A stretch of 24,000 bases of DNA. Origin: Oscillospiraceae bacterium (lineage in GTDB: Bacteria > Bacillota > Clostridia > Oscillospirales > Acutalibacteraceae). Where the stretch lies: assembly GCA_015065765.1 (NCBI GenBank), contig SVPP01000010.1:12760-36759 (forward strand), in the 5' to 3' direction. Of the stretch, positions 1-23,700 are shown one piece after another. The position numbers and the translations under genes are program-made. Every line of letters starts with the position of its first letter. The stretch's first letter is position 1. A model generated the notes under the pieces. The model ran no database searches, was not told the DNA's origin, and worked only from the letters and a program-made list of their open reading frames with translations.

Positions 1-966
1 AAGACCGCCAAGCAGACTTCTTGTTGCATTAACAATTGAGCCTGAACCGGTTACAAACTCAAGACCTGCCGGCAGCACCACATCATATTCAAAACAGATA
101 ATAGGCTCACGCCACCACATCGATACGGTGTAATTAATCTCATCTCCCGCTTTCACATCGGTTTTGTCGGGAGTAATATAAAGTGCAACCCATGTATCAT
201 CACTGATTTCAGGCAGAGATGTTTCAGAAAGAACTTTTCCGCAGACGGAACATGAAACTACAACTTTACCATCAACTGTTTCTGTTACCTCAGTATGACC
301 ATTTGCAGGAATAACATCTTGTGCGATAAGGATTTCACCACACTCAGAACAGTGGCTGCCTTCTGTTAAGCCTGTGTTTATACAGTCCGCTTCCACTGCT
401 TCATCGATTACCTCAGTGTGAGAATGAACAGCGTCTTCTGCTGTGACTTTCACTCTGTTGACAACGCTGACATTACTGATAATTTCGTCCGCACCGCTGA
501 GAAAAGTATCTTCAAACTGAAGCTCAACAGATAAATCCTTTCCAACGGCTTCATCTGTAACCTTTGCTTTCAGAACAGTCAAAGCAACTTCATCATATCC
601 TGACGGCATAGCAAAAGCTTCTGCCTTGTATCCGTTTGTTCTCAGGCCTCCGTTCAAGCTTTCCTGGGAATCAGTAAACGCATAACCATCAAGACCAAGC
701 AGTACTGCTGTACCGTCAACTGCTTTTCCGGAGCCTTTTACATACTCAAGTCCCTCAGGAAAAACAACATCATATTCAAAACATAATATAGGATTTTTCC
801 ACCACATTGAAATTGTATATGTAACTACATCGCCGATCTTCGCTTCAGCTTTATCGGGAGTTACATACAAGATGATTTCAGGTTCTGCTTCTGCAAAAGC
901 AGAAACAGGAAATACAGACAAAATCATCACTAATGATAATAACACGGCTAAAATTTTCTTTTTCAT
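1..966 (-). CDS. Secreted repeat-domain protein, N-terminal part (C-terminus runs off the left edge); cohesin-like/Ig-like beta-sandwich modules
   Basis: Absent from the ORF track because it is open at the window edge. Translating the reverse complement from the ATG at 964-966 gives MKKKILAVLLSLVMILSVFPVSAFAEAEPEIILYVTPDKAEAKIGDVVTYTISMWWKNPILCFEYDVVFPEGLEYV... This starts with a signal peptide, and the frame stays open to base 1 (966 nt = 322 codons). A GGAGG RBS lies at 977-981. A module of about 50 aa (TPDK..GD..YT.SMWW..PI.CFEYDVV.P.GLE.V) occurs twice. The product name comes from the motif pattern only. Confidence 0.65.
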   Translation of the reverse strand, partial: MKKKILAVLLSLVMILSVFPVSAFAEAEPEIILYVTPDKAEAKIGDVVTYTISMWWKNPILCFEYDVVFPEGLEYVKGSGKAVDGTAVLLGLDGYAFTDSQESLNGGLRTNGYKAEAFAMPSGYDEVALTVLKAKVTDEAVGKDLSVELQFEDTFLSGADEIISNVSVVNRVKVTAEDAVHSHTEVIDEAVEADCINTGLTEGSHCSECGEILIAQDVIPANGHTEVTETVDGKVVVSCSVCGKVLSETSLPEISDDTWVALYITPDKTDVKAGDEINYTVSMWWREPIICFEYDVVLPAGLEFVTGSGSIVNATRSLLGGL

Positions 967-1006
967 AAAAGAATCGCCTCCAATACGCGTATTTTTCGCC
1001 GTTTAT

Positions 1007-1035
1007 ATTGTATCATAACTAAAAATATTATGCAA
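1007..1035 (-). promoter_or_regulatory. Candidate sigma-A promoter for the secreted-protein gene (TTGCAT-17 nt-TACAAT)
   Basis: On the minus strand, -35 TTGCAT lies at 1030-1035 and -10 TACAAT at 1007-1012 with a 17-nt spacer. This is about 40 nt upstream of the ATG at 966. Confidence 0.4.
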
Positions 1036-1065
1036 CAGTAAATTTTTTTGTAATATTTTTATAAT

Positions 1066-1100
1066 AAAAAATCAGTACGGTCGGGCAACCGTACTGATAA
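1066..1100 (-). terminator. Rho-independent terminator downstream of ricT
   Basis: Perfect 10-bp stem (1071-1080 ATCAGTACGG paired with 1089-1098 CCGTACTGAT) and an 8-nt loop. On the minus strand it is followed by a T-run (complement of the A-run at 1066-1070), directly after the stop codon at 1103. Confidence 0.6.
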
Positions 1101-1102
1101 TT

Positions 1103-1969
1103 TTATGATTCAATGTCCTTCAGTGCTTCAAGTTCTTCTTTGTCAACCTTGATTCTGCCGTCCTTGATGACCTTTACATCATGTCTGTGATAAGCCTGAG
1201 GTGCTGCTCCCGGACGTCTGTCAAGATTTACCTTTACAGTTCCTTTGAGGAGGTTTGTTTCAACTACTGTTCCTCTGCCCTCGTTTGTTTCAACGATTGC
1301 ACCCACTTTGGGAGTTACTTTCAGAAGATGCTCATATGCCTCCTGCTCATATTTCAGACAACACATAAGTCTGCCGCAAGTACCGCTGATTTTTGTGGGA
1401 TTGAGTGACAAGCCCTGTTCCTTTGCCATTTTAATCGAAACAGGCTGGAAATCACCTAAGAAGCTTGAACAGCAGAGAGGTCTGCCGCACATACCGAGAC
1501 CACCAATCATTTTTGATTCGTCTCTCACGCCAATCTGACGAAGCTCGATTCTTGTTCTGAAAACTCCGGCCAGGTCCTTGACAAGTTCTCTGAAATCCAC
1601 TCTGCCGTCTGAGGTGAAATAGAAAAGAATCTTACTGTTGTCAAAAGTATATTCAACCTCAACAAGTTTCATATCAAGGCCGTGCTTTGCAATTTTTTCA
1701 AGGCAGATGTCGAACGCCTTCTTTTCTTTTTCTTTATTCTTTGCAACTGTTGCAAGGTCCTCTTCTGTTGCGATTCTGATAAGCTTTTTCAGAGGATGGA
1801 CAATTTTATTGTCCTCCACCTCTCTGTTTTCAGCTGCAACCTCACCGCATTCAATACCTCTTGCAGTTTCAACTATAACTTTATCAAATTTTTTAAGCTG
1901 TTTTCCGTCAGGATCAAAGAAATAAACCTTTCCCACATCCTTGAATCTTACACCGATTACTTCAGCCAT
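1103..1969 (-). CDS. ricT: PSP1 domain protein, YaaT/RicT family (stage 0 sporulation / RNase Y regulatory complex component)
   Basis: 288 aa with an ATG start and an AGGAGG RBS. The N-terminus VIGVRFKDVGKVYFFDP, the Cys cluster MCGRPLCC...GTCGRLMCCL and the position directly downstream of holB are all typical of YaaT. Confidence 0.85.
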   Translation of the reverse strand: MAEVIGVRFKDVGKVYFFDPDGKQLKKFDKVIVETARGIECGEVAAENREVEDNKIVHPLKKLIRIATEEDLATVAKNKEKEKKAFDICLEKIAKHGLDMKLVEVEYTFDNSKILFYFTSDGRVDFRELVKDLAGVFRTRIELRQIGVRDESKMIGGLGMCGRPLCCSSFLGDFQPVSIKMAKEQGLSLNPTKISGTCGRLMCCLKYEQEAYEHLLKVTPKVGAIVETNEGRGTVVETNLLKGTVKVNLDRRPGAAPQAYHRHDVKVIKDGRIKVDKEELEALKDIES

Positions 1970-1971
1970 AT

Positions 1972-2859
1972 TTATACCTCCTGTTTCAAACGGCTCGAAA
2001 GCCTCGCTAAAAGCAAATTATGATTCGCATAATGCTCAATACCGCTTACGGCATCACTGACAACCTTCATGGCTTTCATGATTTTTTCCGATGTCATACC
2101 GCCTGCAAGGAGCCTTGCAGTATCTTCATTCTGCGACATGAGATTTTCTGCTCCGCTTTTCAGCGCAAGAGAATCTCTTAAAATCAGTATAACCTCTTCG
2201 AGAGATAATTTCAAGAGGTCTTTATCTTTTTCAAAAGCTCCCAGAGTTTTCATCATCTCGATTTCGCTGTCGGACAAAATTGCTTTTCCGATTAACGACG
2301 CACTCTCGTATGCTTTTTCAAGCTTCTTTTTTGTAGTGCTGTCATCTGTCAGGTCACCCATTCTGAATGCGGCACACCTTGATTTGACAGTTTCAAGAAG
2401 CATGGCCTTGTCCTCGCATTCAAGGATAAAATTCACATACGAGGGCGGCTCTTCAAGAACCTTAAGAAAGGCATTCATGGCAGTTTCGTTCATTCTGTGA
2501 GCTGCCGTTATAATATAAACCTTTCTTTCCGCCTCGTTAGGAACAACGTAAGCATCGCTTCTTACTTTTCGTATATCTTCAACAGATACTGTTTTTGATT
2601 TGTTAGTACCTTCAACCTTTTTTATATCAACGTGGGACTCACTCTCTGCCTTCATGCAGTTTGCACATTTGCCACACGGTCTCAGTGTTTTTTCACTCTC
2701 CGTACAGACAAGTGCCTTTGAGAGAGTTTGTGCAAAGGTAAGCCTTGTGCTTTCGTTTGCACCTTCAAGAATTATGGCATGAGGAAGCCTTCCGCTGTCA
2801 AAAGCAGATGATATGAGTTCTTTGAATTTTACGTCATATTCTCTGTTTTCAAAATTCAT
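1972..2859 (-). CDS. holB: DNA polymerase III subunit delta-prime
   Basis: 295 aa. The N-terminus has GRLPHAIILEG and the zinc module C..PCGKCANC. It sits in the conserved holB-yaaT arrangement, and its start overlaps the upstream stop (ATGA). Confidence 0.85.
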   Translation of the reverse strand: MNFENREYDVKFKELISSAFDSGRLPHAIILEGANESTRLTFAQTLSKALVCTESEKTLRPCGKCANCMKAESESHVDIKKVEGTNKSKTVSVEDIRKVRSDAYVVPNEAERKVYIITAAHRMNETAMNAFLKVLEEPPSYVNFILECEDKAMLLETVKSRCAAFRMGDLTDDSTTKKKLEKAYESASLIGKAILSDSEIEMMKTLGAFEKDKDLLKLSLEEVILILRDSLALKSGAENLMSQNEDTARLLAGGMTSEKIMKAMKVVSDAVSGIEHYANHNLLLARLSSRLKQEV

Positions 2860-3656
2860 GACTTACCGTCCAATACCTGAAGATTTCGTTTTATCACTTT
2901 TTCTCCCCGCCATTCAAAGGCTCTGCCCTCTATGGGAGTCTCCTCTGTAACTTTTGGATTGAAACTTTCGATAAATTCTTTTATTGTTGTTTTTTCTGCC
3001 TTTATATTATAGGGACATGCTTTCTGACATTCATCGCAGCCCCATGCACAGTTAAGGCGTTTCATCATTTCTTTATATTCTTCGGGGATTTCCCCTTTTT
3101 TCTGACTGATATGTGAAAGACATTTCTCTTTATCAAACTTCGCCTCTTTCAGCACACCTGTAGGACATGCTTCTTTGCATTTTCCGCAATCGGGACAACT
3201 TCTGATTTCTTTTTCCTCTGTGGGAATTTCAAGGTCGGTGAGAATCTCGCCGATAAAAACCCATGAGCCGTATTTTTCGTTTATGAAAAGTCCGTTTTTG
3301 CCTATCATTCCAAGTCCTGATTTCGCCGCAGCAAAAACTTCGGGAACAGGAGAATTATCCGCAAAGAAAACAAATTCATTCTTAGGATATTCTTCCTTCA
3401 ATTTATCACATATAAGTGAAAGATATCCGCTTGCTACAGTGTGATAATCGCTGACCGCCGCATAGCGTGATACGTTTAATTTTTCGTATGCATCCTCACC
3501 TAAATAATAAGGGAAGAGGAAAGTTATAACTGTTTTTGTGTTTTGGGGGATTCTCTCTTTCGCTCTGCAAGGAATAAGTCTATCCTTGTAAATTTCAAAA
3601 GAAGAGAAGCCGAAAAACTCACAGTAATTTTTAATGATTTTTTCTGTTTTTTCCAT
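2856..3656 (-). CDS. queG: Epoxyqueuosine reductase (QueG-like, two 4Fe-4S motifs)
   Basis: 266 aa. It carries SRYAAVSDYH, GLGMIGKNGLFINEKYGSWVFIGEILTD and the ferredoxin motifs CPDCGKCKEACP and CDECQKACP. Confidence 0.75.
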   Translation of the reverse strand: MEKTEKIIKNYCEFFGFSSFEIYKDRLIPCRAKERIPQNTKTVITFLFPYYLGEDAYEKLNVSRYAAVSDYHTVASGYLSLICDKLKEEYPKNEFVFFADNSPVPEVFAAAKSGLGMIGKNGLFINEKYGSWVFIGEILTDLEIPTEEKEIRSCPDCGKCKEACPTGVLKEAKFDKEKCLSHISQKKGEIPEEYKEMMKRLNCAWGCDECQKACPYNIKAEKTTIKEFIESFNPKVTEETPIEGRAFEWRGEKVIKRNLQVLDGKS

Positions 3657-4586
3657 TTAAGCTACCTGCTGACCAAGTGCAATCATAACGGGCATTGTAA
3701 GTATGCTCATAAAGCTGACCATAGCAACGACCTTTGATGCACAGGGTGCGTCCTTATCATATTTCGCAGCAAACATAACAGTGTTGTTTGCACTGGGTGC
3801 TGAGCTTGAAAGAATGATTGCGGGCACAAGTGCACCTGTCACTCCGAAAAGTTTGAAAAGTCCCAGCATACAAAGGGGAAGAACGATAAGCTTGAGAAAT
3901 GCAGTAAGATAAATCCTCTTGTCGCTGAACATAGTTTTCAGATCAGTATTTGCAAGGTATGTGCCGAAGAAAATCATAGCAAGAGGAGTGTTGAGTGATG
4001 CAAGATAATCAACAGGTGTCTGGAGAATTTCAGGAAGTCTTATTCCGAAAATAAAAAGCGGAAGTCCGATTAAAACTGCAATTGTACCCGGATTGAGAAT
4101 CAGTTTTTTAGGGTCAAACTTTTTCTCACCTGTCATTACCATTATACCGTGGGTAAAGGAACTGATATTGAAAACCATTACCACAACCGAGCAATAGAAA
4201 ACGCCTTCAGCACCTAAAACTGCATTGGCAAGCGGAAGAGCCATATAGCCTACGTTGCCGTAGTTTGATGCAAATTTATAAATGCAGTTATCACTCTTTG
4301 ACTTATCTCTGAAAAACGGAAGAGCAATAAGTGCGCCCACAATCTGGATTGCCGCCGCAAAAGCGAAAGCCAGAAGAAGTTTTTTATAGTTTTCTGGAGT
4401 GTTGTCCATGGACATGAAGGCGGTGATAATAACTGCGGGAGTTATTATGTAGAAAAGAAGGTCATTTGAAAGTCTTGCAGTTTTTTCTTTAAAAAGACCT
4501 GTCTTGTCGCAGATAAAACCCACTGCAACAAGAATGTAAAGAATGCCCACCTGCTTGGCGGCAATTGCAAGATTTTCCAGAAACAC
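3657..4586 (-). CDS. AEC (auxin efflux carrier) family membrane transporter
   Basis: 309 aa and polytopic. The start is GTG at 4584-4586, one nt after the upstream stop, with a GAGGAGG RBS. The hydrophobic repeat architecture and the N-terminus (ILYILVAVGF...) fit the AEC family. Confidence 0.75.
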   Translation of the reverse strand: MFLENLAIAAKQVGILYILVAVGFICDKTGLFKEKTARLSNDLLFYIITPAVIITAFMSMDNTPENYKKLLLAFAFAAAIQIVGALIALPFFRDKSKSDNCIYKFASNYGNVGYMALPLANAVLGAEGVFYCSVVVMVFNISSFTHGIMVMTGEKKFDPKKLILNPGTIAVLIGLPLFIFGIRLPEILQTPVDYLASLNTPLAMIFFGTYLANTDLKTMFSDKRIYLTAFLKLIVLPLCMLGLFKLFGVTGALVPAIILSSSAPSANNTVMFAAKYDKDAPCASKVVAMVSFMSILTMPVMIALGQQVA

Positions 4587-4587
4587 C

Positions 4588-5541
4588 TTATTTTTCCTCC
4601 TCTATAATTTTTTCAGATTCCTTCACTGTCATGTTTTTTATCTGGGGTGCAGAAACAAGAGTCATTGCAAAAACAAATGCAAACAAGCAGAAGAAAAAGT
4701 CTGCAATTTCTACGGGACATTCAAGCAAGCCATCTGCTGCAAGAGCTTTGTAGGATGAATCAAAAAGCTGAAGAAGCAGTCCGGGAATTGCTACAACTGC
4801 TGCAAACATTCCACCGATAAGTCCGTAGGAAACAACCTTGTAAGACACACATCTGTTGTTGACCTCAGAAGACATCTGAGCTAAGTACATAAAGAACATC
4901 ATCATAAACGCAATCATGAAAAGTTCAAGGAAAAGTGATGAAACATTCATGAAGCTGATTGTTCTTGTGAAACGCTGAATCATTCTGAAGGTTGCCCAGA
5001 AAAGAGGACAAAGAGAGAAAAATTTCATTTTTGCCATATCTGCGTTTCTCATTCCTGCATATTTAAAAGTAAGAATAATGAAATAAATTGCTGAAAGTAT
5101 TCCGAAAACACCTTCAAGAAGTCTCGGAAGTGCACCTGATTTCATAAGATATGAAAAATGTGTCTGCTCTGCCATAAATGGGTCATAGGAAGCTGACATG
5201 TCAAAGTAAGACTGAACAGATGCTACCGCACCGAACACAAGCAAAATTGCAAAACAGCCTGATGCTACAGAAACAGCAATATTTTTCTTTTCAGGAAGTT
5301 TATCCTGCGGTGCTTTTCCTGAAAGAAGGCAAATCACAAAAATTGCCACTGCGGAAAAGCCTAAAACACCATAAAGAATAGGTGTTGTAATGCTGTTTTC
5401 TGTAAAAAAGCCTGTTTCAAAATCAATAAGACCGCTGAAAGACTGATAAATTCTGATAATAAGCGCAACAATAGTACCTGCAAGTGCTACAAAGAAAGCA
5501 CTTTTCATCTGAAGGTTTTTCGCGCTACCTTTAATTTTCAT
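4588..5541 (-). CDS. Hypothetical polytopic membrane protein
   Basis: 317 aa with about 8 hydrophobic segments. It has an ATG start with a GGTGA RBS and is packed tightly between citrate synthase and the AEC transporter. I recognised no family. Confidence 0.55.
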   Translation of the reverse strand: MKIKGSAKNLQMKSAFFVALAGTIVALIIRIYQSFSGLIDFETGFFTENSITTPILYGVLGFSAVAIFVICLLSGKAPQDKLPEKKNIAVSVASGCFAILLVFGAVASVQSYFDMSASYDPFMAEQTHFSYLMKSGALPRLLEGVFGILSAIYFIILTFKYAGMRNADMAKMKFFSLCPLFWATFRMIQRFTRTISFMNVSSLFLELFMIAFMMMFFMYLAQMSSEVNNRCVSYKVVSYGLIGGMFAAVVAIPGLLLQLFDSSYKALAADGLLECPVEIADFFFCLFAFVFAMTLVSAPQIKNMTVKESEKIIEEEK

Positions 5542-5550
5542 AAAATCACC

Positions 5551-6966
5551 TTATCTCTGTTCTCTGGGAATATAAATACCTGATACGCCCTCTGATTCTT
5601 TTCTTTCATCAAGAGAAACATATTCACGTGAATGAGCAACACTCTTGTATGCAGGGCGGATGATTCTGTTAGCAGTTGTCATTTCTTCAATTCTGTGTGC
5701 TGACCAGCCTGCAACTCTTGCTACCGCAAACATAGGTGTGAACAAATCTACAGGGATTTTCAGCATCTCATAAATAAGACCTGAGTACATGTCAACGTTA
5801 GCACAAAGAGGCTTCTTCACGCCCTTCACTGAAGCGAAAACCTGCGGTGACAGTTCTTCAATACGTGTAATCATATTGAAACGCTCTTCATACTCAGTGC
5901 CCTTTGCAAATTCTCCTGCTTTTTCTTTAAGGAGGACTGCTCTCGGGTCTGAGAGAGTGTAGATTGCATGGCCCATACCGTAAATAAGACCTGAGCCGTC
6001 GCCGGCTTCTTTATTGATAATCTTCTTAAGATAATCTGCAATTTCACCGTCAGAAGAATGGTTTTTAACATTTTCATAAATTTCGCCGATCATCTGATGA
6101 GCCTTGATGTTTGCACCACCGTGACGGGGACCTTTCAGTGAACCGATAGCCGCACCGATTGCAGAATATGTATCTGTGCCTGATGATGAAAGAACTCTTG
6201 TTGTAAACGTTGAGTTGTTACCGCCACCATGCTCTGCATGAATGCAAAGGCAAAGGTCAAGAAGTTTTGCCTCTTCATCAGTGAATGTTCTGTCAGCTCT
6301 TGTGAAACGAAGGATTGTTTCAGCAGTTGAATGCTCAGGCTTGGGCTGATGAATATACATGCTCTTCTTGTAATAAGTTCTTCTCTTTACCTGATATGCG
6401 TATGTCATAATTGCAGGCAACTGTGCCACAAGATGGATACACTGTCTGAGCATGTTAGTAACACTTGTATCATCAGGGTTTGAATCGTATGAATAAAGAG
6501 CAAGAACACTTCTTGCCATTTTGTTCATGATGTCAGGTGACGGTGCCTTCATGATCATATCTTCAATGAAATCATCGGGAAGTTCACGGCACATTGCAAG
6601 TGTTGCTCTGAACATTTCAAGCTGTTCCTTTGTCGGAAGTGAGCCGAAAATCAGAAGCCATGCAATTTCTTCAAAACCGAAACGGTTTTCCTTCTGACAG
6701 TTTCTGACTAAATCCACCATGTCATAGCCACGGTAAGTAAGTCTTCCTTCCTTGGGGATTCTTTCGCCGTCAATAATATAGTAACCCTCAACACTGCAGA
6801 TTTGTGTCAGTCCTGCCATAACGCCTGTGCCGTCAGAATTTCTAAGACCTTTCTTGACACCGTACTTGCTGAAATCTCCTGTGTCGATACGGTTATTTTT
6901 CTCAAGTTCTTTACATAAACTTTCCATAGAGCTGTCATCGATATATTTGATATAAGTTGTTGACAT
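5551..6966 (-). CDS. Citrate synthase (citrate/2-methylcitrate synthase family)
   Basis: 471 aa. It carries the family motifs HAEHGGGNNSTF, GPRHGGAN and YGMGHAIY, and has an ATG start with a GAGGAG RBS. Confidence 0.9.
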   Translation of the reverse strand: MSTTYIKYIDDSSMESLCKELEKNNRIDTGDFSKYGVKKGLRNSDGTGVMAGLTQICSVEGYYIIDGERIPKEGRLTYRGYDMVDLVRNCQKENRFGFEEIAWLLIFGSLPTKEQLEMFRATLAMCRELPDDFIEDMIMKAPSPDIMNKMARSVLALYSYDSNPDDTSVTNMLRQCIHLVAQLPAIMTYAYQVKRRTYYKKSMYIHQPKPEHSTAETILRFTRADRTFTDEEAKLLDLCLCIHAEHGGGNNSTFTTRVLSSSGTDTYSAIGAAIGSLKGPRHGGANIKAHQMIGEIYENVKNHSSDGEIADYLKKIINKEAGDGSGLIYGMGHAIYTLSDPRAVLLKEKAGEFAKGTEYEERFNMITRIEELSPQVFASVKGVKKPLCANVDMYSGLIYEMLKIPVDLFTPMFAVARVAGWSAHRIEEMTTANRIIRPAYKSVAHSREYVSLDERKESEGVSGIYIPREQR

Positions 6967-7019
6967 ATCAAAGCTCCTCTCTTATACACATAATTATTCA
7001 TTATAAAATATTACTCTAT

Positions 7020-7049
7020 ATTGTACAATATTTCATTACTAAAAGTCAA
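7020..7049 (-). promoter_or_regulatory. Candidate sigma-A promoter for the citrate synthase operon (TTGACT-18 nt-TACAAT)
   Basis: On the minus strand, -35 TTGACT lies at 7044-7049 and -10 TACAAT at 7020-7025. The -10 is part of the palindrome TTGTACAA at 7021-7028, which also reads TACAAT on the plus strand at 7024-7029. Confidence 0.4.
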
Positions 7050-7071
7050 GAAAAAAGGATGGTAGATTTAC

Positions 7072-7986
7072 ATGAGATTCACACTGTTTTTAAGCATATG
7101 CTTGGCACTTTCAATGATTTTTACCCCTGTTATACCTCTCCACAGCAAAACAGAAGAAAAGAAGTCATCATCTGTCTCTGTAAAAGCAGAAAAGGAAGAA
7201 GAAATAACTCTTTACAGAACAGAGATTAAAGAGACGGTAAAATTGTCTGTAAGCGACTATCTTACAGGTGTTGTCAGCGCGGAAATTTCTCCGCTTTATT
7301 CAGAAGAAGCAATAAAAGCACAGGCTATCGCCGCCCACACATATGCACTCTATCAGCAGGAAAAAGGTGTCACTCTCACTGACGATTACAAAAAGCATCA
7401 GGGCTACATTTCTCCCGAAGAAGCAAAAGAAAAATGGGGAGACAAATATGACCTTTATATGCAAAAAATCACCTCATGCGTAGACGAGGTTAAGGAAGAA
7501 ATCATAACATATGAAGGGGAAATTATATTGCCTGCGTTTTTTGCTTTATGCTCAGGAAAAACGGAGAATGTAAAAGATATATGGGGACAAGAGCTTCCCT
7601 ACCTTGTGTCTGTTACAAGCGAGGGCGACAAGCTTTCCCCCGACCTTGTGACAGAAAAGAAAGTAACAAGAGAAGAGTTTGAGAATTTTGCAGGAATTAC
7701 GCTTAGTGAAACACCTGTTTTTTCCCTTGACTGCACAGAAGCGGGAGCAGTAAAAGCCCTGACAATTGACAGCAAAGAGTTTGACGGTGACGATGTACAG
7801 AAAGCATTCTCACTCAAATCAAACAATTTTTCTCTCACCTATTCTGAAAACAATTTTATTTTCACCGTTTACGGCTATGGTCACGGTGTGGGAATGAGCC
7901 AATACGGTGCAGATTTCATGGCAAGACAAGGTGCAAGTTATGATGAGATTCTGAAGCACTATTATACGGGGGTTGAAATTGAATAA
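7072..7986 (+). CDS. spoIID: Stage II sporulation protein D (SpoIID/LytB lytic transglycosylase domain)
   Basis: 304 aa with an N-terminal signal/anchor. It carries the motifs AQAIAAHTYAL, PAFFALCSGKTE and GYGHGVGMSQYGA. Confidence 0.85.
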   Translation: MRFTLFLSICLALSMIFTPVIPLHSKTEEKKSSSVSVKAEKEEEITLYRTEIKETVKLSVSDYLTGVVSAEISPLYSEEAIKAQAIAAHTYALYQQEKGVTLTDDYKKHQGYISPEEAKEKWGDKYDLYMQKITSCVDEVKEEIITYEGEIILPAFFALCSGKTENVKDIWGQELPYLVSVTSEGDKLSPDLVTEKKVTREEFENFAGITLSETPVFSLDCTEAGAVKALTIDSKEFDGDDVQKAFSLKSNNFSLTYSENNFIFTVYGYGHGVGMSQYGADFMARQGASYDEILKHYYTGVEIE

Positions 7987-8030
7987 ATGAATAATGAATG
8001 ATTAATAATTGATGGCCTGCGGCAGCATTT

Positions 8031-8077
8031 TATAATAACAGCGTAGCCCCGAAATTCTGCATTCTTCACTCTGCATT
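8031..8077 (+). repeat. Intergenic repeat family B, copy 1 (TATAAT box plus CCCCGAAATTCTGCATTCTTCACTCTGCATT)
   Basis: It aligns with 14946-15000 and 22353-22404, all in the same orientation. Its right end overlaps the stop codon (8076-8078) of the minus-strand phosphoesterase gene. Confidence 0.7.
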
Positions 8078-8537
8078 AAATATGTGCATTGACGCACATA
8101 ACCTCGCCTTTCGGAGTAATATCAATAAATCCATAGTTCCCGTCCCTGACACTTCCCGGATTAAAAACATAAACTCCGTCGATATATTTACTCACAGGAA
8201 TGTGAGTGTGGCCATATAATATAATGTCAGCACCTAAAGACTGACCTTTGTAGATAAGATTATCTATGCCGAATTTCACATTTTCAAGAAATCCGTGGGT
8301 TATGAAAAACTTTTTACCTTCAATCACCTGAGTGACATTTTCTTCAAGTTCAGAATAAAAATCACAGTTGCCTCTGACCTTGATTACATGCTTATCAATG
8401 AGGTGTATACCGCATCTGTGTATATCGCTTTCACCGTCACCGAGAAAAATCACAACCTCTGCAGTCGGATGGTTTCTGATTATCCGGCTTAAGGTAAAGC
8501 TGTCCCCATGTGAATCGGAAAGAACAAGTATTCTCAT
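8076..8537 (-). CDS. Metallophosphoesterase, YfcE/MJ0936 family
   Basis: 153 aa. It carries MRILVLSDSHGD, GDGESD, RGNCD and the GHTH motifs. Confidence 0.85.
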   Translation of the reverse strand: MRILVLSDSHGDSFTLSRIIRNHPTAEVVIFLGDGESDIHRCGIHLIDKHVIKVRGNCDFYSELEENVTQVIEGKKFFITHGFLENVKFGIDNLIYKGQSLGADIILYGHTHIPVSKYIDGVYVFNPGSVRDGNYGFIDITPKGEVMCVNAHI

Positions 8538-8566
8538 ATTAAAAATTCCTTTCTGAGGTGATTATA

Positions 8567-8755
8567 ATGCAAAATAATTTTGACTCTTTTTTTAACGGCT
8601 CTGCATCAAAGGAAGATGTAGAAAAATATGTAAACAATAATTTATCACAGGAAGATAAAGAAAAAATCAAATCAGTCCTTGCCGATAAAAATAAGCTGAA
8701 CGAAATTTTATCAAGTCCCTTTGCTCAGGAACTGATGAAGAAGTTCAGAAAGTAA
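8567..8755 (+). CDS. Small hypothetical protein (62 aa from the ATG; the ORF track starts at GTG 8558)
   Basis: GAGGTG at 8555-8560 lies 6 nt before ATG 8567, which favours that start. The protein is charged and probably helical. It is the first of three tightly packed small ORFs. Confidence 0.45.
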   Translation: MQNNFDSFFNGSASKEDVEKYVNNNLSQEDKEKIKSVLADKNKLNEILSSPFAQELMKKFRK

Positions 8756-8758
8756 GCT

Positions 8759-9088
8759 ATGGATATGGATAACATCGGCGATATTATTTCCTCACTTAGC
8801 GAAGATGATATCGCATCATTGAAGCAGACCGCAGAAAGTCTTTTCGGCGGTGCAAAAGAAGAAAAAAAGAAGGACACAGGCTTTGATTTTTCAGGGATTG
8901 ACCCTCAGATGATAGGAAAAATCACAAGAATGATGAGCCTGCTCAATTCCTCTTCTTCAAGTCCACGTTGCGACCTGATACGGGCATTGAAGCCTCTTCT
9001 TTCTCAGGATAAAAGGAAACGTGCAGACGAGGCGATGCAGCTTATGAAAATGCTTGATATTCTGCCTCTGATACAAGAGCTGAGGTGA
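8759..9088 (+). CDS. Small hypothetical protein (109 aa)
   Basis: It starts 3 nt after the previous stop. It has an acidic N-terminus, a poly-Ser stretch and a C-terminal LIRALKPLLSQDKRKRADEAMQLMKMLDILPLI helix. I recognised no family. Confidence 0.45.
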   Translation: MDMDNIGDIISSLSEDDIASLKQTAESLFGGAKEEKKKDTGFDFSGIDPQMIGKITRMMSLLNSSSSSPRCDLIRALKPLLSQDKRKRADEAMQLMKMLDILPLIQELR

Positions 9089-9092
9089 TTAC

Positions 9093-9377
9093 ATGAAAGA
9101 TTTTTCCTACGACAACATAGAAAGAGCCTCTGAAGAAGCGTTCAGAATGCAGAAAGATTCACGTTTTTTCGACGAGGATTATGAGCCTTACAAATGTAAT
9201 TGCCGTTTTGAAAAGAACAGGGAAAAACCCCCTCTCCCTCAAAACGGCAAATGCTGTCATAAAAATCCTTTCGGAATTGACGATGATAAGCTTCTGATTC
9301 TCGCGCTCATTCTGATTCTGTCAAAAAATTCAGATGATAAGCTTCTGATGATGGCACTCTTATACATCATAATGTAA
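9093..9377 (+). CDS. Small hypothetical Cys-rich protein with a duplicated hydrophobic C-terminal motif (94 aa)
   Basis: A GAGGTG RBS precedes the ATG. It carries the Cys motifs YKCNCRF and GKCCHKNPF, then DDDKLLILALILIL and SDDKLLMMALLYII. Its 3' end overlaps the convergent ybaK by 11 nt. Confidence 0.45.
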   Translation: MKDFSYDNIERASEEAFRMQKDSRFFDEDYEPYKCNCRFEKNREKPPLPQNGKCCHKNPFGIDDDKLLILALILILSKNSDDKLLMMALLYIIM

Positions 9378-9837
9378 TAGGGCAGAATTTTCCGTTTACG
9401 AGCTTACATAAATCCTGAGGATTTATTTCCATCTGAAAACCAAGCTTGCCGGCACTGACATAAATTCTGTCAAAAATTTCAGCTGATGAATCAAAAACCG
9501 TCACATAATTCTTTTTCATACCAACGGGACTGCATCCACCGCGGATGTAGCCCGTTATTTTGTTGATATCCTTAACATGAATCATTGAAACTGACTTTTC
9601 ACCCACAGATGATGCTGCCTTTTTCAGGTCAAGCTCTTCTGCACCGGGAACTACAAAAACATAATAGTTTCCGCTTTTACCCTCAGTTACAAGTGTTTTG
9701 AAAACTCTTTCAATATCTGCTCCGATTTTCCCCGCAACAGTTACAGCATCAAGTGCTTCCTTGCATGGGTATGAGTGGAGAATGTAGTCAAATTTGGCAG
9801 TTTCAACAATTCTTATAGCGTTTGTTTTAACACTCAA
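9367..9837 (-). CDS. ybaK: Cys-tRNA(Pro)/Cys-tRNA(Cys) deacylase, YbaK/EbsC family
   Basis: 156 aa. Its N-terminus KTNAIRIV and the GGCSPVG motif match the family. The start is TTG at 9835-9837 with a CAGGAG RBS, overlapping the end of the GH78 gene by 11 nt. Confidence 0.8.
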   Translation of the reverse strand: MSVKTNAIRIVETAKFDYILHSYPCKEALDAVTVAGKIGADIERVFKTLVTEGKSGNYYVFVVPGAEELDLKKAASSVGEKSVSMIHVKDINKITGYIRGGCSPVGMKKNYVTVFDSSAEIFDRIYVSAGKLGFQMEINPQDLCKLVNGKFCPITL

Positions 9838-21250: not shown

Positions 21251-21300
21251 TTTGAAAATCCTTTCTTTATTTACAATCACTTTGTTGCTTTTTGGTTTCA

Positions 21301-21330
21301 GACGGACGCCCAATGGGCGCCCCTACGATG
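21301..21330 (+). repeat. Intergenic repeat family A, degenerate copy 3 (GC hairpin followed by CCCTACGATG)
   Basis: The sequence GACGGACGCCCAATGGGCGCCCCTACGATG forms the stem CGCCC/GGGCG. It shares the CCCTACGATG tail with copy 1. Confidence 0.4.
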
Positions 21331-21333
21331 TTT

Positions 21334-21765
21334 TTATTTTGCATTGTAAATATAAACATCGGGATTTTTCTCTTTACATTTCTCGCAAAGTGCTTTGCAC
21401 AAATCGGGATAATTGATGTAGTTATCTCTTATTGCAAAAGGTTTTTCTTCTGACACATAAACCAAAAGATGTTTCCTTTTAACTTCTATTTTTTCTATCT
21501 TTTCATAGGGAATTTCAGCATCAGCCACGCCTCCGTTTACAATAAAGCTTTTGCAGACGAGAGCTTCATCACCGATCTGTACAGTCTGTTTTACATCAGC
21601 AATATGTAGTCTGAGAAATGCCAAAATTGAAACAGCAAGAAAAAGTTCAGATGCAAGCATTATTGCAACTGAAATCAAAGAAAGCAAAGCAAGAATAAGT
21701 GCTACCAACAAATAAAAAATTATGTAAGATAAGATGATCTTTCTTTTATTTTTTATGAATATCAT
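21334..21765 (-). CDS. Small membrane protein (two N-terminal TM helices plus a soluble, possibly bacterial-PH-like, domain)
   Basis: 143 aa with an ATG start and an AAAGGTGGA RBS. The gene is AT-rich. It has two hydrophobic helices followed by about 85 soluble residues. The family assignment is a guess. Confidence 0.5.
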   Translation of the reverse strand: MIFIKNKRKIILSYIIFYLLVALILALLSLISVAIMLASELFLAVSILAFLRLHIADVKQTVQIGDEALVCKSFIVNGGVADAEIPYEKIEKIEVKRKHLLVYVSEEKPFAIRDNYINYPDLCKALCEKCKEKNPDVYIYNAK

Positions 21766-21796
21766 TTATCTTCCACCTTTCATTTGATGGTGCTTT

Positions 21797-21828
21797 TCGG
21801 TTCGTCGAGGACGCCGAACCCTACGAAG
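21797..21828 (+). repeat. Intergenic repeat family A, copy 2
   Basis: The sequence TCGGTTCGTCGAGGACGCCGAACCCTACGAAG forms the stem GGTTCG/CGAACC. Relative to copy 1, this is a compensatory C>T / G>A pair. Confidence 0.65.
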
Positions 21829-21854
21829 TTTCATGTAATTCGTCGGAATGTTTC

Positions 21855-22329
21855 GGCTCCCTTGTGTAAAGGGAGCTGTCAGCCGTCAAGGCTGACTGAG
21901 GGATTGTTTAACAATTTTATCAATATATTCACAAACCCCTCTGAAATTCTGATTGACTTCATTATTCGGAATTCTTATTATTTTCAAACCATATTCTTCA
22001 AGATATTTGGTTCGTTCTTCATCTTTTTCCATACCGACAGTATCATAATGTTGAGAGCCGTCAATCTCTATAACAAGTTTTGCGGAAGCGGAATAAAAGT
22101 CTGCAATATATTTTCCAAGAACCTTTTGTCTTGAAAAACGAACAGGATAAGTTTTCAAGAAGTCATACCATAAATGCTTTTCTTCTTTTGTCATGTTTTT
22201 TCGAAGTGTTTTTGCAATAGGTACTATATTTCTATTATGTTTCCTATCCAACATAATGCTCCTTTTTTCTTCACAATCCCTCAGTCAAAAAACTTCGTTT
22301 TTCGACAGCTCCCTTTACACAAGGGAGCC
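21855..22329 (-). mobile_element. DUF559 endonuclease cassette bounded by structured terminal inverted repeats (MITE/homing-like; mobility not shown)
   Basis: The outer 26-mer GGCTCCCTTGTGTAAAGGGAGCTGTC (21855-21880) is exactly inverted at 22304-22329. The inner 13-mer GACTGAGGGATTG (21894-21906) is exactly inverted at 22274-22286. Between these modules each end carries a different small hairpin. Confidence 0.45.
21886..22254 (-). CDS. DUF559 (Vsr/restriction-endonuclease-like fold) domain protein
   Basis: 122 aa. The pattern ARKLRKNMTKEEKHLW...L...FRRQ, then DF.....L.IE.DG..H, then D..R...L...G is typical of DUF559, read here as AKTLRKNMTKEEKHLWYDFLK...FSRQKV...ADFYSASAKLVIEIDGSQH...DEERTKYLEEYGLKIIR. 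The last 7 codons and the stop lie inside the left inverted repeat. Confidence 0.8.
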   Translation of the reverse strand: MLDRKHNRNIVPIAKTLRKNMTKEEKHLWYDFLKTYPVRFSRQKVLGKYIADFYSASAKLVIEIDGSQHYDTVGMEKDEERTKYLEEYGLKIIRIPNNEVNQNFRGVCEYIDKIVKQSLSQP

Positions 22330-22352
22330 TATTGTTACCGTTGGTTTTATTG

Positions 22353-22404
22353 TATAATCGGCGAAGCCCCGAGATTCTGCATTTTGCATTCTGCACTCTG
22401 CATT
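22353..22404 (+). repeat. Intergenic repeat family B, copy 3
   Basis: The sequence TATAATCGGCGAAGCCCCGAGATTCTGCATTTTGCATTCTGCACTCTGCATT ends 3 nt before the stop of the minus-strand gene at 22408. Confidence 0.7.
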
Positions 22405-22407
22405 TTA

Positions 22408-23700
22408 TTACTGTTCTTTCTGGAACGGTGCGGGGATAAGGTCTTCCATATCCTTTTCGTCAAGCTTTTTGCGAAGAAGGAACATACAGTCATCAATACT
22501 CGCGTAACCTTTCACAACATCCTCAGCAAGGGCTTTACATGAGGGCGCACCGCACGTGCCGCAGTCGAGATTCGGGAGCATTTTCTGAATTTCCTTGATA
22601 TCATTCATCATGCGCATAGCATCCACAATATTTCCTGAAAGTCTCATTACGGGAAGCTCTTCAAGAGGCTTCTCCCAGAACATTTCGTGGGGCACGCTAT
22701 CATCACCGATTCTGTTACATGCAACGGGAAGATATTTTTTCAATGTCTGAAGTCTGTTCTTTGCTATGTAGGGATTCTCCGCAGTAAGACATCCGCCTAC
22801 GCAGCCTTCTGTACATGCGTTAAGCTCAATGAAATCAACGTTATTGAGCTTTTCGTCTTCAATTTCTTCAAGAATTTTGATAACGTTTTCTATACCGTCA
22901 ACATGAAGGCTGTTGTCAAGAAGAAGCGCCGATGCTTCACCGCCGCTGACTGCCCAGCCTACACCGATTCTGCCTGAGTGCTGGATGTTTTCAATCTCAG
23001 TTACCTTCTTCATCTGCTGAAGCATCACGGGATAAATATCGCTGATTGCCACAGCTCCGTCAAGGTTTGATTTTTCACTGAACAGCGGCTGTTTGATTGC
23101 AGTAATCTTTGCAGGACATGGAGTAATAAAGAAAACTCCGATATCCTCAGCATTCAGATTCTGCTCCTTCATAGCCTTTTCACGTGCAAGTCTTGCCGCC
23201 TCTTCAAAAGGCGCATTAAGATTTACAACGTTGGGAATAAGCTCAGGGAATGAAATCCTGATAAGTCTGCACACAACAGGACACGCCGATGAAATGACAG
23301 GCTTTCTGAAAGCGCCTGCCGCCATCAGCTTTCTCGTTGCGTGTGACACAAGCTCTGCACCCTTTGAAACCTCAGCGACTTCGTCAAATCCCATTCTTTT
23401 CAGGACATTGAGAACGATGTTGATATCGTCAAGGTTTGCAAACTGTCCGTAAAGGGCAGGTGCAGGAAGTGCAATTCTATATTTGTAGTTTACAATGCTT
23501 GTAAGTGATTCACGCTCTGCATACTTTGCATGATGGGGACAAACTCTGATACATTCACCGCAGTCAATGCATCTTTCGTGAATCATTTTCGCCTTACCTT
23601 TTCTCACACGGATAGCTTCGGTAGGGCACCTTTTTATACAGTTCATACAGCCCAGACATTTGTCTGTGTCAAGGCGTACTGAATGAGCATATTTATCCAT
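22408..23700 (-). CDS. HydS-like (putative sensory) [FeFe]-hydrogenase homologue: 2x4Fe-4S ferredoxin, H-cluster domain and a C-terminal CxxCxxxxC Fe-S domain
   Basis: 430 aa. It carries CLGCMNCIKRCP and CIDCGECIRVCP, then the H-cluster-like motifs L1 SSACPVV (Ala in place of the proton-relay Cys), L2 TPCPAKITA and L3 ELNACTEGCVGGC. The C-terminal LPNLDCGTCGAPSCKALAEDVVKG resembles an RnfB-type Fe-S motif. No PAS domain fits in this length. Confidence 0.8.
   Translation of the reverse strand: MDKYAHSVRLDTDKCLGCMNCIKRCPTEAIRVRKGKAKMIHERCIDCGECIRVCPHHAKYAERESLTSIVNYKYRIALPAPALYGQFANLDDINIVLNVLKRMGFDEVAEVSKGAELVSHATRKLMAAGAFRKPVISSACPVVCRLIRISFPELIPNVVNLNAPFEEAARLAREKAMKEQNLNAEDIGVFFITPCPAKITAIKQPLFSEKSNLDGAVAISDIYPVMLQQMKKVTEIENIQHSGRIGVGWAVSGGEASALLLDNSLHVDGIENVIKILEEIEDEKLNNVDFIELNACTEGCVGGCLTAENPYIAKNRLQTLKKYLPVACNRIGDDSVPHEMFWEKPLEELPVMRLSGNIVDAMRMMNDIKEIQKMLPNLDCGTCGAPSCKALAEDVVKGYASIDDCMFLLRKKLDEKDMEDLIPAPFQKEQ

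Follow-up and report, generated by a model that had tools for sequence, protein, structure and literature searches.

The window analysed here, a 24,000-nt stretch of an Oscillospiraceae bacterium genome (GCA_015065765.1, contig SVPP01000010.1, positions 12,760-36,759 of the forward strand), carries a 475-bp intergenic cassette which lies between the gene for a 430-aa iron-hydrogenase-like protein (hyd430) and the next gene. Within this cassette a gene for a predicted endonuclease of the DUF559 family is nested between two inverted structured repeat modules, which form terminal inverted repeats of ~55 bp, and the whole was identified as one copy of a conserved cassette. All coordinates are positions in the window, whose own genome is referred to as G000. 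The initial annotation of this DNA had described a 122-aa DUF559 open reading frame (ORF) between two exactly inverted modules, and its outline was confirmed: the ORF, the 26-nt outer repeat with fully complementary arms, the ribosome-binding site just inside the right repeat, and the end of the ORF with its stop codon inside the left one were all recovered. The inner repeat is an exact inversion as claimed, but is 15 nt long rather than 13, and the two differing small hairpins noted at the ends are real, but are not separate features, as both represent the variable second hairpin of one repeat module. Beyond that annotation, the ends were found to belong to a large dispersed family, an 11-nt tail was found to mirror one arm of the first hairpin, and the layout was found to be conserved across species. 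The parts of the cassette are:

21855-21880 and 22304-22329: perfect outer inverted repeats, 26 nt, 100% complementary
21893-21907 and 22273-22287: perfect inner inverted repeats, 15 nt, 100% complementary
22273-22329, minus strand: 5' (upstream) module, read on the gene strand as H1 (first hairpin), T, H2 (second hairpin) and tail
22308-22328, minus strand: H1 of the 5' module, with pyrimidine arm GCTCCCT, loop and purine arm AGGGAGC
22284-22306, minus strand: H2 of the 5' module, a 10-bp stem including one G.T pair, with a triloop
22273-22283, minus strand: tail of the 5' module, TGAGGGATTGT
22259-22264, minus strand: ribosome-binding site AAGGAG of the DUF559 ORF, with the ATG 4 nt further on
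21886-22254, minus strand: ORF of 122 aa for a predicted DUF559 / Vsr-fold PD-(D/E)xK endonuclease, its last codons (..KQSLSQP) and stop lying within the left (3') module
21855-21907, plus strand, inverted relative to the gene: 3' (downstream) module, with H1, H2 and tail
21856-21876, plus strand: H1 of the 3' module
21878-21896, plus strand: H2 of the 3' module, GTCAGCC-GTCAA-GGCTGAC
21897-21907, plus strand: tail of the 3' module, TGAGGGATTGT, read on the gene strand as ACAATCCCTCA and encoding QSLSQ

Each end of the cassette consists of one 53-57-nt copy of the module, in which H1 (pyrimidine arm, loop of 5-7 nt, purine arm; stem of 8-9 bp) is followed by T-GKC, by H2, which is closed by GAC, and by a purine tail, the predicted fold being two adjacent hairpins with the tail left free, for RNA and DNA alike. 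Both modules of the cassette fold with z scores of about -5 to -6.8 against shuffles, whether treated as RNA or DNA, and the core pattern GAGCTGTC-N6-24-GACTGAGGG occurs 31 times in the genome as compared to 0 times for the reversed control, which places the layout far beyond chance. The genome-wide copy search that had been proposed revealed the repeat not to be unique to this locus: the exact 26-mer occurs 9 times, and a looser pattern identified 46 copies, all of them intergenic in a genome that is ~91% coding (by crude ORF calls). Solo copies and gene-less inverted pairs are scattered between the genes both here and in many Clostridia, including a gene-less pair of the window's type on contig 35, and the module family was detected in 56 of 301 sampled Clostridia genomes. 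Within four animal-gut metagenomes, word depth over the modules reached 2,000-9,600 (700-9,600 when the neighbouring repeats are included, 21788-21935 and 22306-22453) versus ~5 on the unique flanks, and contigs are interrupted at these places; modules and neighbouring repeats are very abundant community-wide and fragment assemblies. No RNA run was found to contain this stretch. Two types of module-bearing miniature elements, B (~100 bp) and C (~190 bp), were observed in 8-10 nearly identical copies each. They are bounded by the palindromic 12-mer AAATTATAATTT (44 genome copies versus 0 for the reversed control), which they share when arranged head to tail in arrays (C43:3990-4500, C7:16490-16880, C38:47300-47500 and C38:48690-48900), and this 12-mer may be an insertion target, a terminus or a recombination site for another agent. 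A hammerhead reading of the CUGANGA found in one module type was dropped, as no GAAA core and no Rfam match accompany it.

Sequence comparison of the modules revealed that the two hairpins evolve differently. H1 covaries across subfamilies, and for H2 the 63 sequence variants comprise 467 Watson-Crick, 11 G.T and 0 A.C pairs, meaning that its pairing is kept and its sequence is not. At one orthologous site in three species H2 reads AGC-GATA-GCT, ACC-GAAA-GGT and AC-GAA-GT, which includes a compensatory GC-to-CG flip, and 25 of 25 pairs of compared cassettes differ from each other in the H2 of their 5' module. H1 and tail, when compared between cassettes with ORFs that have reached saturation at silent sites (median synonymous divergence, dS, 1.28), show a median identity of 100%; the search pattern itself dictates ~17 of the 40 positions in this comparison and leaves the remainder free.

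The DUF559 family of nucleases is very large, and hardly any function has been assigned to it. The protein encoded in the window matches Pfam PF04480 over residues 13-114 (99.7 bits versus a cut-off of 20.6; E 1e-28) and NCBIfam PRK09767 with E 4e-18, the latter under its equivalog cut-off. Residues D52, E63, D65, H69, D78 and R81 are invariant, and an alignment of 18 diverse relatives keeps D52, E63, D65 and H69, which belong to the conserved catalytic motif D...E-x-D-G-x-x-H, throughout. The structure model (predicted local distance difference test, pLDDT, 89.8) has a Vsr-type fold, for which Foldseek returned 3HRL and the catalytic domain of I-Bth0305I as best PDB structure matches, with Vsr itself (1CW0/1VSR) ranking lower; 3HRL and I-Bth0305I are likewise the PDB sequence matches (for I-Bth0305I, profile E 1e-4 and template-modelling score 0.81 on target). 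A median ratio of nonsynonymous to synonymous divergence (dN/dS) of 0.05 over 54 pairs documents strong purifying selection on the protein. I-Bth0305I (PDB 3R3P), an EDxHD / Vsr-like homing endonuclease with a homologous catalytic domain, is itself a selfish nuclease gene spread by break repair. It resides, however, in a phage group I intron and possesses an extra N-terminal DNA-binding region, whereas the window protein is a bare 122-aa domain, intergenic and placed between its own repeats; the Rfam search revealed no intron at the DUF559 locus, and neither an intron or intein nor a defined cognate target, as expected of a homing endonuclease, was found for it.

The tail of the module was found to be the reverse, not the reverse complement, of the H1 purine arm across subfamilies (purine arm/tail AGGGAGC/TGAGGGA, GGGGAGC/TGAGGGG, AGGGAGG/GGAGGGA, AGGGGGC/TGGGGGA and AGGAGGG/GGGAGGA), a mirror relation which was reached in 0 of 5000 permutations. 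A finder requiring only the two hairpins yielded 39 distinct arm/tail types with 318 positions, and these were scored by the purine-motif triad code (G.G-C, A.A-T, T.A-T, T.C-G). Valid triads are formed at 292 of 318 positions in the mirror register, against 161 of 318 for the direct register and no more than 227 with permuted tails, and the match reaches as far as the stem of each type, e.g., 10 of 10 in the 10-bp type. Shifted Watson-Crick pairing of the tail with the H1 pyrimidine arm was rejected, as it gives only 4-6 bp and leaves the end positions unpredicted, unlike the mirror/triad rule, and a protein bound to duplex DNA cannot account for a relation that is reversed but uncomplemented. 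With these two explanations set aside, a strand folded back on itself twice, as a pyrimidine-purine-purine triplex, explains the mirror relation, and the module is laid out like an intrastrand purine-motif DNA triplex, the fold as such being predicted.

Due to this three-block design, the module is, judged by its sequence, a hairpin-looped variant of the BoxC/PIT/TM kind of repeat, motifs of which are reportedly a subject of Hoyne et al. 2000. Both share the one-strand blocks pyrimidine arm, purine arm and mirrored purine arm, and both are multi-copy, strictly intergenic, solo or in palindromic pairs, and associated with variable loci. According to the passages of Holder et al. 2015 (PMC4666352) that deal with these repeats, which have been known since the 1990s, the BoxC / PIT / TM_ECO form is CCCTCNCCC-N3-6-GGGNGAGGG-N3-GGGNGAGGG, the TM_ECO triplex forms in vitro, and the repeats, of which E. 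coli K-12 has 23 copies, mark variable loci as intergenic solo copies or palindromic pairs. The same passages report PIT elements to stop DNA polymerase in vitro, TM sites to be unstable in E. coli and purine-motif triplexes to be absent from RNA, and they name neither a mobility enzyme near the repeats nor a protein partner or a mechanism of spreading. The Clostridial module differs in that its second loop consists of T-GKC, a 5-12-bp hairpin and GAC instead of 3 nt, i.e., it totals 13-37 nt, with 1 nt unpaired if H2 folds. Its stems comprise 7-10 triads and contain more A, and its triplex is a predicted one. As the published ITxF finder allows loops of 1-6 nt (PMC4666352, in the part describing it), Clostridial modules with H2 in the second loop escape it, and triplex-type repeats are more widespread than loop-limited searches see, given 56 of 301 Clostridia genomes and a ~thousand-fold excess depth in gut metagenomes. 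The statement that nothing here belongs to a described system thus holds for the pairing with DUF559, which did not come up in the literature searched, and fails for the repeat.

The pairing of gene and repeat was followed through the Clostridia. In its own genome the window cassette is one of 3 DUF559 gene-bearing copies, the two further paralogs being 53-54% identical and each lying directly downstream of a forward-plus-inverted module pair (contigs C32 and C43); the same 5' module stands upstream of both and of DUF559 in two relatives (G006 and G016). The layout of module, gene and inverted module recurs in relatives, including another family of the order, and the window cassette is the most compact form of the pairing seen. 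A one-genome-per-species scan gave 79 loci, mostly from metagenome-assembled genomes (MAGs) of Oscillospirales and Christensenellales from animal guts, to which a sequence-agnostic finder (pyrimidine arm, purine arm, mirror block) was applied. The motif was identified at the DUF559 gene in 66 of 79 species loci, in 38 of them as an inward-facing pair, at a density which drops from 4.7 per kb at the gene to 0.074 per kb at distances above 400 nt, i.e., a 63-fold local enrichment. In the commonest cassette form, found in other genera, the 5' side reads GCCTCCC..GGGAGG-TGGC-[H2]-GAC-GGAGGGATTGT, then ATG, and since this tail runs directly into the start codon, with GGAGGG 6-7 nt ahead of it, the tail is the Shine-Dalgarno sequence. 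On the 3' side the inverted tail encodes ..QSLSQ, the inverted H2 encodes the last residues, and the stop TGA lies within a conserved TGAC, followed by the inverted H1. Start signal and stop codon are hence built into the modules in dozens of species. Co-occurrence among 41 relatives (15 with both, 5 with the module only, 2-4 with the gene only and ~19 with neither) is partly trivial, as the cassette itself brings two modules, and was not used as a main argument. No other gene family was seen inside module pairs.

The same pairing of gene and repeat extends from gut Clostridia to E. coli, Deinococcus and cyanobacteria. E. coli K-12, with 23 TM_ECO copies (control 0), has a single DUF559 gene, ycjD, and one TM_ECO lies 168 nt behind it on the same strand, a proximity for which a chance of ~0.25% was estimated. 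At this locus (L169, NC_000913.3 1351040-1351830) the last codons and the stop of ycjD fall within a degenerate triplex motif, and what remains of another DUF559 3' end is found between ycjD and the full TM_ECO. E. coli lineages lacking the eefRABCD operon carry ycjD in its place, as stated in the pertinent passage of PMC12817139. A tblastn search against plasmid records identified DUF559 relatives in Deinococcus, cyanobacteria and alpha-, beta- and gamma-proteobacteria, and triplex-type motifs adjoin the gene in 9 of the 10 loci fetched, which represent five phyla or classes. Two Deinococcus plasmids (132 kb and 428 kb) contain the motif exactly twice each, inverted and flanking the DUF559 gene, and one Deinococcus cassette separates paaD from paaZ. 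The motifs face outward in Deinococcus and inward in Clostridia and Picosynechococcus. Two further observations were made at these loci: sapF is followed by a long perfect hairpin whose 3' arm contains the start codon of ycjD, and in Photobacterium sp. GJ3 (L178, NZ_CP073579.1) a Deinococcus-type motif, CCTCCCCC..GGGGGAGG..GGAGGGGG, occurs 18 times on the replicon in five tight same-strand clusters, one of which adjoins a DUF559 gene.

Comparison of congeners, another check that had been proposed at the outset, revealed the site to be polymorphic. Downstream of the orthologous 430-aa gene two genomes have nothing inserted (G010, G001), three carry a solo forward module just ahead of the ribosome-binding site of the DRTGG gene (G009, G002, G007), one has only the membrane-protein gene (G008), and three have the full cassette (G000, G006, G016), unrelated inserts being found in the remaining genomes. 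Between two species whose cassettes are 92% identical, homology starts exactly at the outer end of H1, which identifies the cassette as a discrete unit. In one MAG a cassette 98.5% identical was found beside two unrelated upstream contexts, and as both contigs end inside it, this may reflect two copies or strain variation.

As the adjacency outlived a complete turnover of repeat sequence and orientation, and as the repeats contain the start and stop signals of the gene, the functional coupling of the DUF559 gene and the repeat is well supported. How the two are coupled is less certain, and the reading given here is a tentative one, preferred although its chance is put below even: a partnership of the REP/RAYT type, in which the nuclease would recognize folded DNA and would maintain and spread the modules and itself via break repair between copies. 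Initially, one strand would become exposed during replication, transcription or supercoiling, and the module would fold into the hairpin-triplex. Next, the DUF559 protein would recognize the folded module DNA and cut in or beside it. Recombinational repair between module copies would then keep these alike, would copy the gene-bearing form into gene-less or solo sites in a homing-like manner, and would cause insertions and deletions around module sites. With the Shine-Dalgarno sequence and stop inside the modules, the gene could not be parted from its ends, and its expression may be damped as well. A bolder extension, namely that the natural substrate of DUF559 is an intrastrand DNA triple helix, that each lineage's enzyme co-evolved with its own repeat, and that the whole constitutes a bacteria-wide selfish system, a non-HUH counterpart of REP/RAYT, is possible but doubtful.

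Several findings weigh against this partnership. A PD-(D/E)xK nuclease cuts, but cannot rejoin DNA, and cutting of the repeat by DUF559, as well as any cut site, is predicted rather than observed. Target-site duplications, for which a search had been proposed, were not visible at the cassette ends in six genomes, and metagenome contigs, which break at the modules, showed no clean excision, inversion or strand-change joint that stood out (a weak test). Gene copies are few (3) and old as compared to the many solo and gene-less modules, and modules also exist in genomes where no DUF559 was found (G002, G003, G009, G017 and G020, of which three are incomplete). The B and C elements, which lack the gene, were amplified recently and are bounded by the 12-mer, hint at another insertion agent, and solo modules behind genes are found 14 times in sense versus 2 times in antisense, which also fits an RNA-level or transcription-linked role. 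The earlier suggestion of a small selfish or mobile cassette is therefore supported in part: the discrete unit, the presence/absence polymorphism, the dispersed gene-less and solo ends and the cross-phylum adjacency speak for it, whereas, with no target-site duplication, cut site or recent gene-bearing burst found, nuclease-driven mobility is something we infer.

The closest known parallel is that of REP/REPIN and RAYT (REPtrons), for which the passages considered of PMC3333891 and PMC8266576 likewise describe a small nuclease-type gene flanked by inverted copies of a dispersed, intergenic, structured repeat, with repeats that persist without the gene and a folded single strand as presumed substrate. 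The enzyme there is a HUH/Y1 transposase (PF01797), whereas the window gene belongs to PF04480 with its PD-(D/E)xK Vsr fold, hence no obvious rejoining chemistry is at hand; moreover, the module has a hairpin-triplex design without the GTAG head, and its nuclease's activity is predicted. With miniature inverted-repeat transposable elements and compact insertion sequences the cassette shares terminal inverted repeats, gene-less derivatives and an ORF start signal and stop inside the ends; it differs from them in having no transposase fold and no target-site duplication that was found, and at 475 bp it is, to our knowledge, smaller than any autonomous insertion sequence.

Besides this partnership, RNA-level control of a potentially toxic nuclease was considered, which is unlikely but deserves weight. 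Here the modules would act in the mRNA, the 5' tail, which either constitutes or adjoins the Shine-Dalgarno sequence, pairing with the 3' module (panhandle) or with the H1 pyrimidine arm, thereby limiting translation and protecting transcript ends; solo modules would be intercistronic stabilisers or insulators, and the host function of DUF559 (mismatch repair or restriction-like) would be unrelated to the repeats. The initial annotation had offered such a tightly RNA-regulated nuclease as its second option, and part of it stands, as the tail constitutes the Shine-Dalgarno sequence of the commonest cassette form and module orientation is biased. Further support comes from the perfect complementarity of the arms, from the stability of both hairpins as RNA, from G.U-type wobbles in H2 that occur on the sense strand only, from the many H2 loops of the GNRA type, and from solo modules, which follow co-oriented genes 14 to 2 and sit in operons just before the next ribosome-binding site. 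In Caulobacter a DUF559 protein is a Vsr-like repair nuclease, as far as the relevant part of PMC12907096 goes. Left unexplained are the mirror covariation of purine arm and tail, which has no Watson-Crick reading, with purine-motif triplexes reported not to form in RNA, and the outward-facing Deinococcus motifs and different E. coli layout, despite which the adjacency persists. Most modules are distant from any DUF559 gene, and a search of Rfam 15 (E-value mode) with the region and three other module loci returned no such family or anything else relevant. C-GNA-G triloops are typical of DNA mini-hairpins, which likewise counts against this explanation.

About as improbable, and marginally more so, is the idea that the modules are spread by another agent (a Y1/HUH transposase, a site-specific recombinase at the 12-mer, or replication slippage at folded DNA), and that DUF559 is trapped cargo kept for its own benefit. 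Solo and gene-less copies far outnumber gene copies, modules are present in genomes where DUF559 was not found, the B and C elements are nearly identical and bounded by the 12-mer, and the genome has Y1_Tnp genes together with GTAGGG REP-like repeats. This explanation has, however, to accommodate one cargo family with one structural repeat class across Clostridia, Deinococcota, Cyanobacteria and Proteobacteria despite the complete turnover of repeat sequence, and the absence of other gene families from the pairs inspected. It also has to account for the start signal and stop built into the modules and for Deinococcus replicons which have no copies besides the two at the gene.

A third idea, which we regard as improbable, assumes that triplex repeats stall replication and that DUF559 is a host structure-specific nuclease removing or resolving them, its gene being placed between two of them so that dosage or expression follows their folding. 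The polymerase block by PIT elements in vitro and the instability of TM sites in E. coli (both from the cited passages of PMC4666352) as well as the strong purifying selection on the protein would suit such a guardian, but the gene is patchy among close relatives rich in modules, and the cassette behaves as accessory DNA that splits operons. A programmed inversion switch, with a recombinase flipping the gene on and off via the inverted repeats, is hardly credible: a survey of programmed inversion, based on scoring inverted repeats that overlap genes, lists DUF559 as overrepresented (odds ratio 14) among its predicted targets, this row of a table (PMC9881135, in the part seen to concern DUF559) being the only published hint of a DUF559-inverted-repeat association found, but no invertase lies nearby, the promoter is outside the invertible part, the gene keeps one orientation relative to two unlike modules (A' 5', A 3') in all inspected commonest-form cassettes, and no strand-change joints stood out in metagenome contigs, which is a weak test.

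To return to the partnership of repeat and nuclease, it presents the DUF559 family as a candidate partner for long-unexplained triplex repeats and so turns two puzzles into one testable hypothesis. No published link between DUF559 and BoxC/PIT/TM was found in the literature searched, which was judged largely on titles, abstracts and matching passages. The window contributes the hairpin-looped variant with selected H2 pairing, the quantitative triad-code test, the built-in Shine-Dalgarno sequence and stop codon, and the clean presence/absence series at one operon site. If the partnership holds true, it would be the first natural system to use a purine-motif DNA triplex as recognition element. 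If the triplex is indeed the substrate, the 30-year-old BoxC/PIT/TM repeats would be accounted for, along with the instability of genomes in their vicinity, and the Clostridial form would add a selected hairpin in the triplex loop.

As to the surroundings of the cassette, its neighbours are all on the same strand: the 430-aa iron-hydrogenase-like gene upstream and, downstream, a gene for a 143-aa membrane protein, followed by those for DRTGG and PHP. The gap between the 430-aa gene and DRTGG (window 21251-22407; orthologous loci L069-L082) was observed to be a hot spot for accessory DNA which, depending on the species, holds nothing, a solo module, the gene for the 143-aa membrane protein, the DUF559 cassette or unrelated genes spanning kilobases. 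A REP-like repeat adjoins the cassette (21799-21824, minus strand), with a GTAGGG head and then a GC-rich hairpin, GTAGGGTTCGGCGTCCTCGACGAACC; ~79 GTAGGG-hairpin sites of several subtypes were counted in the genome (a loose count), and matches to PF01797 (Y1 transposase / RAYT-type) occur elsewhere in it, the best at C8:10693-10953, hence a classical REP/RAYT system may coexist with that of DUF559. A third repeat family lies between the hydrogenase-like gene and the cassette (22355-22405), where short tandem units of the GCAGAATGCA type are followed by ..CTCGGGGCTTCGCCG, and this family recurs at several loci of the genome (e.g., G000:C43:4400-4490) and at the orthologous site in relatives.

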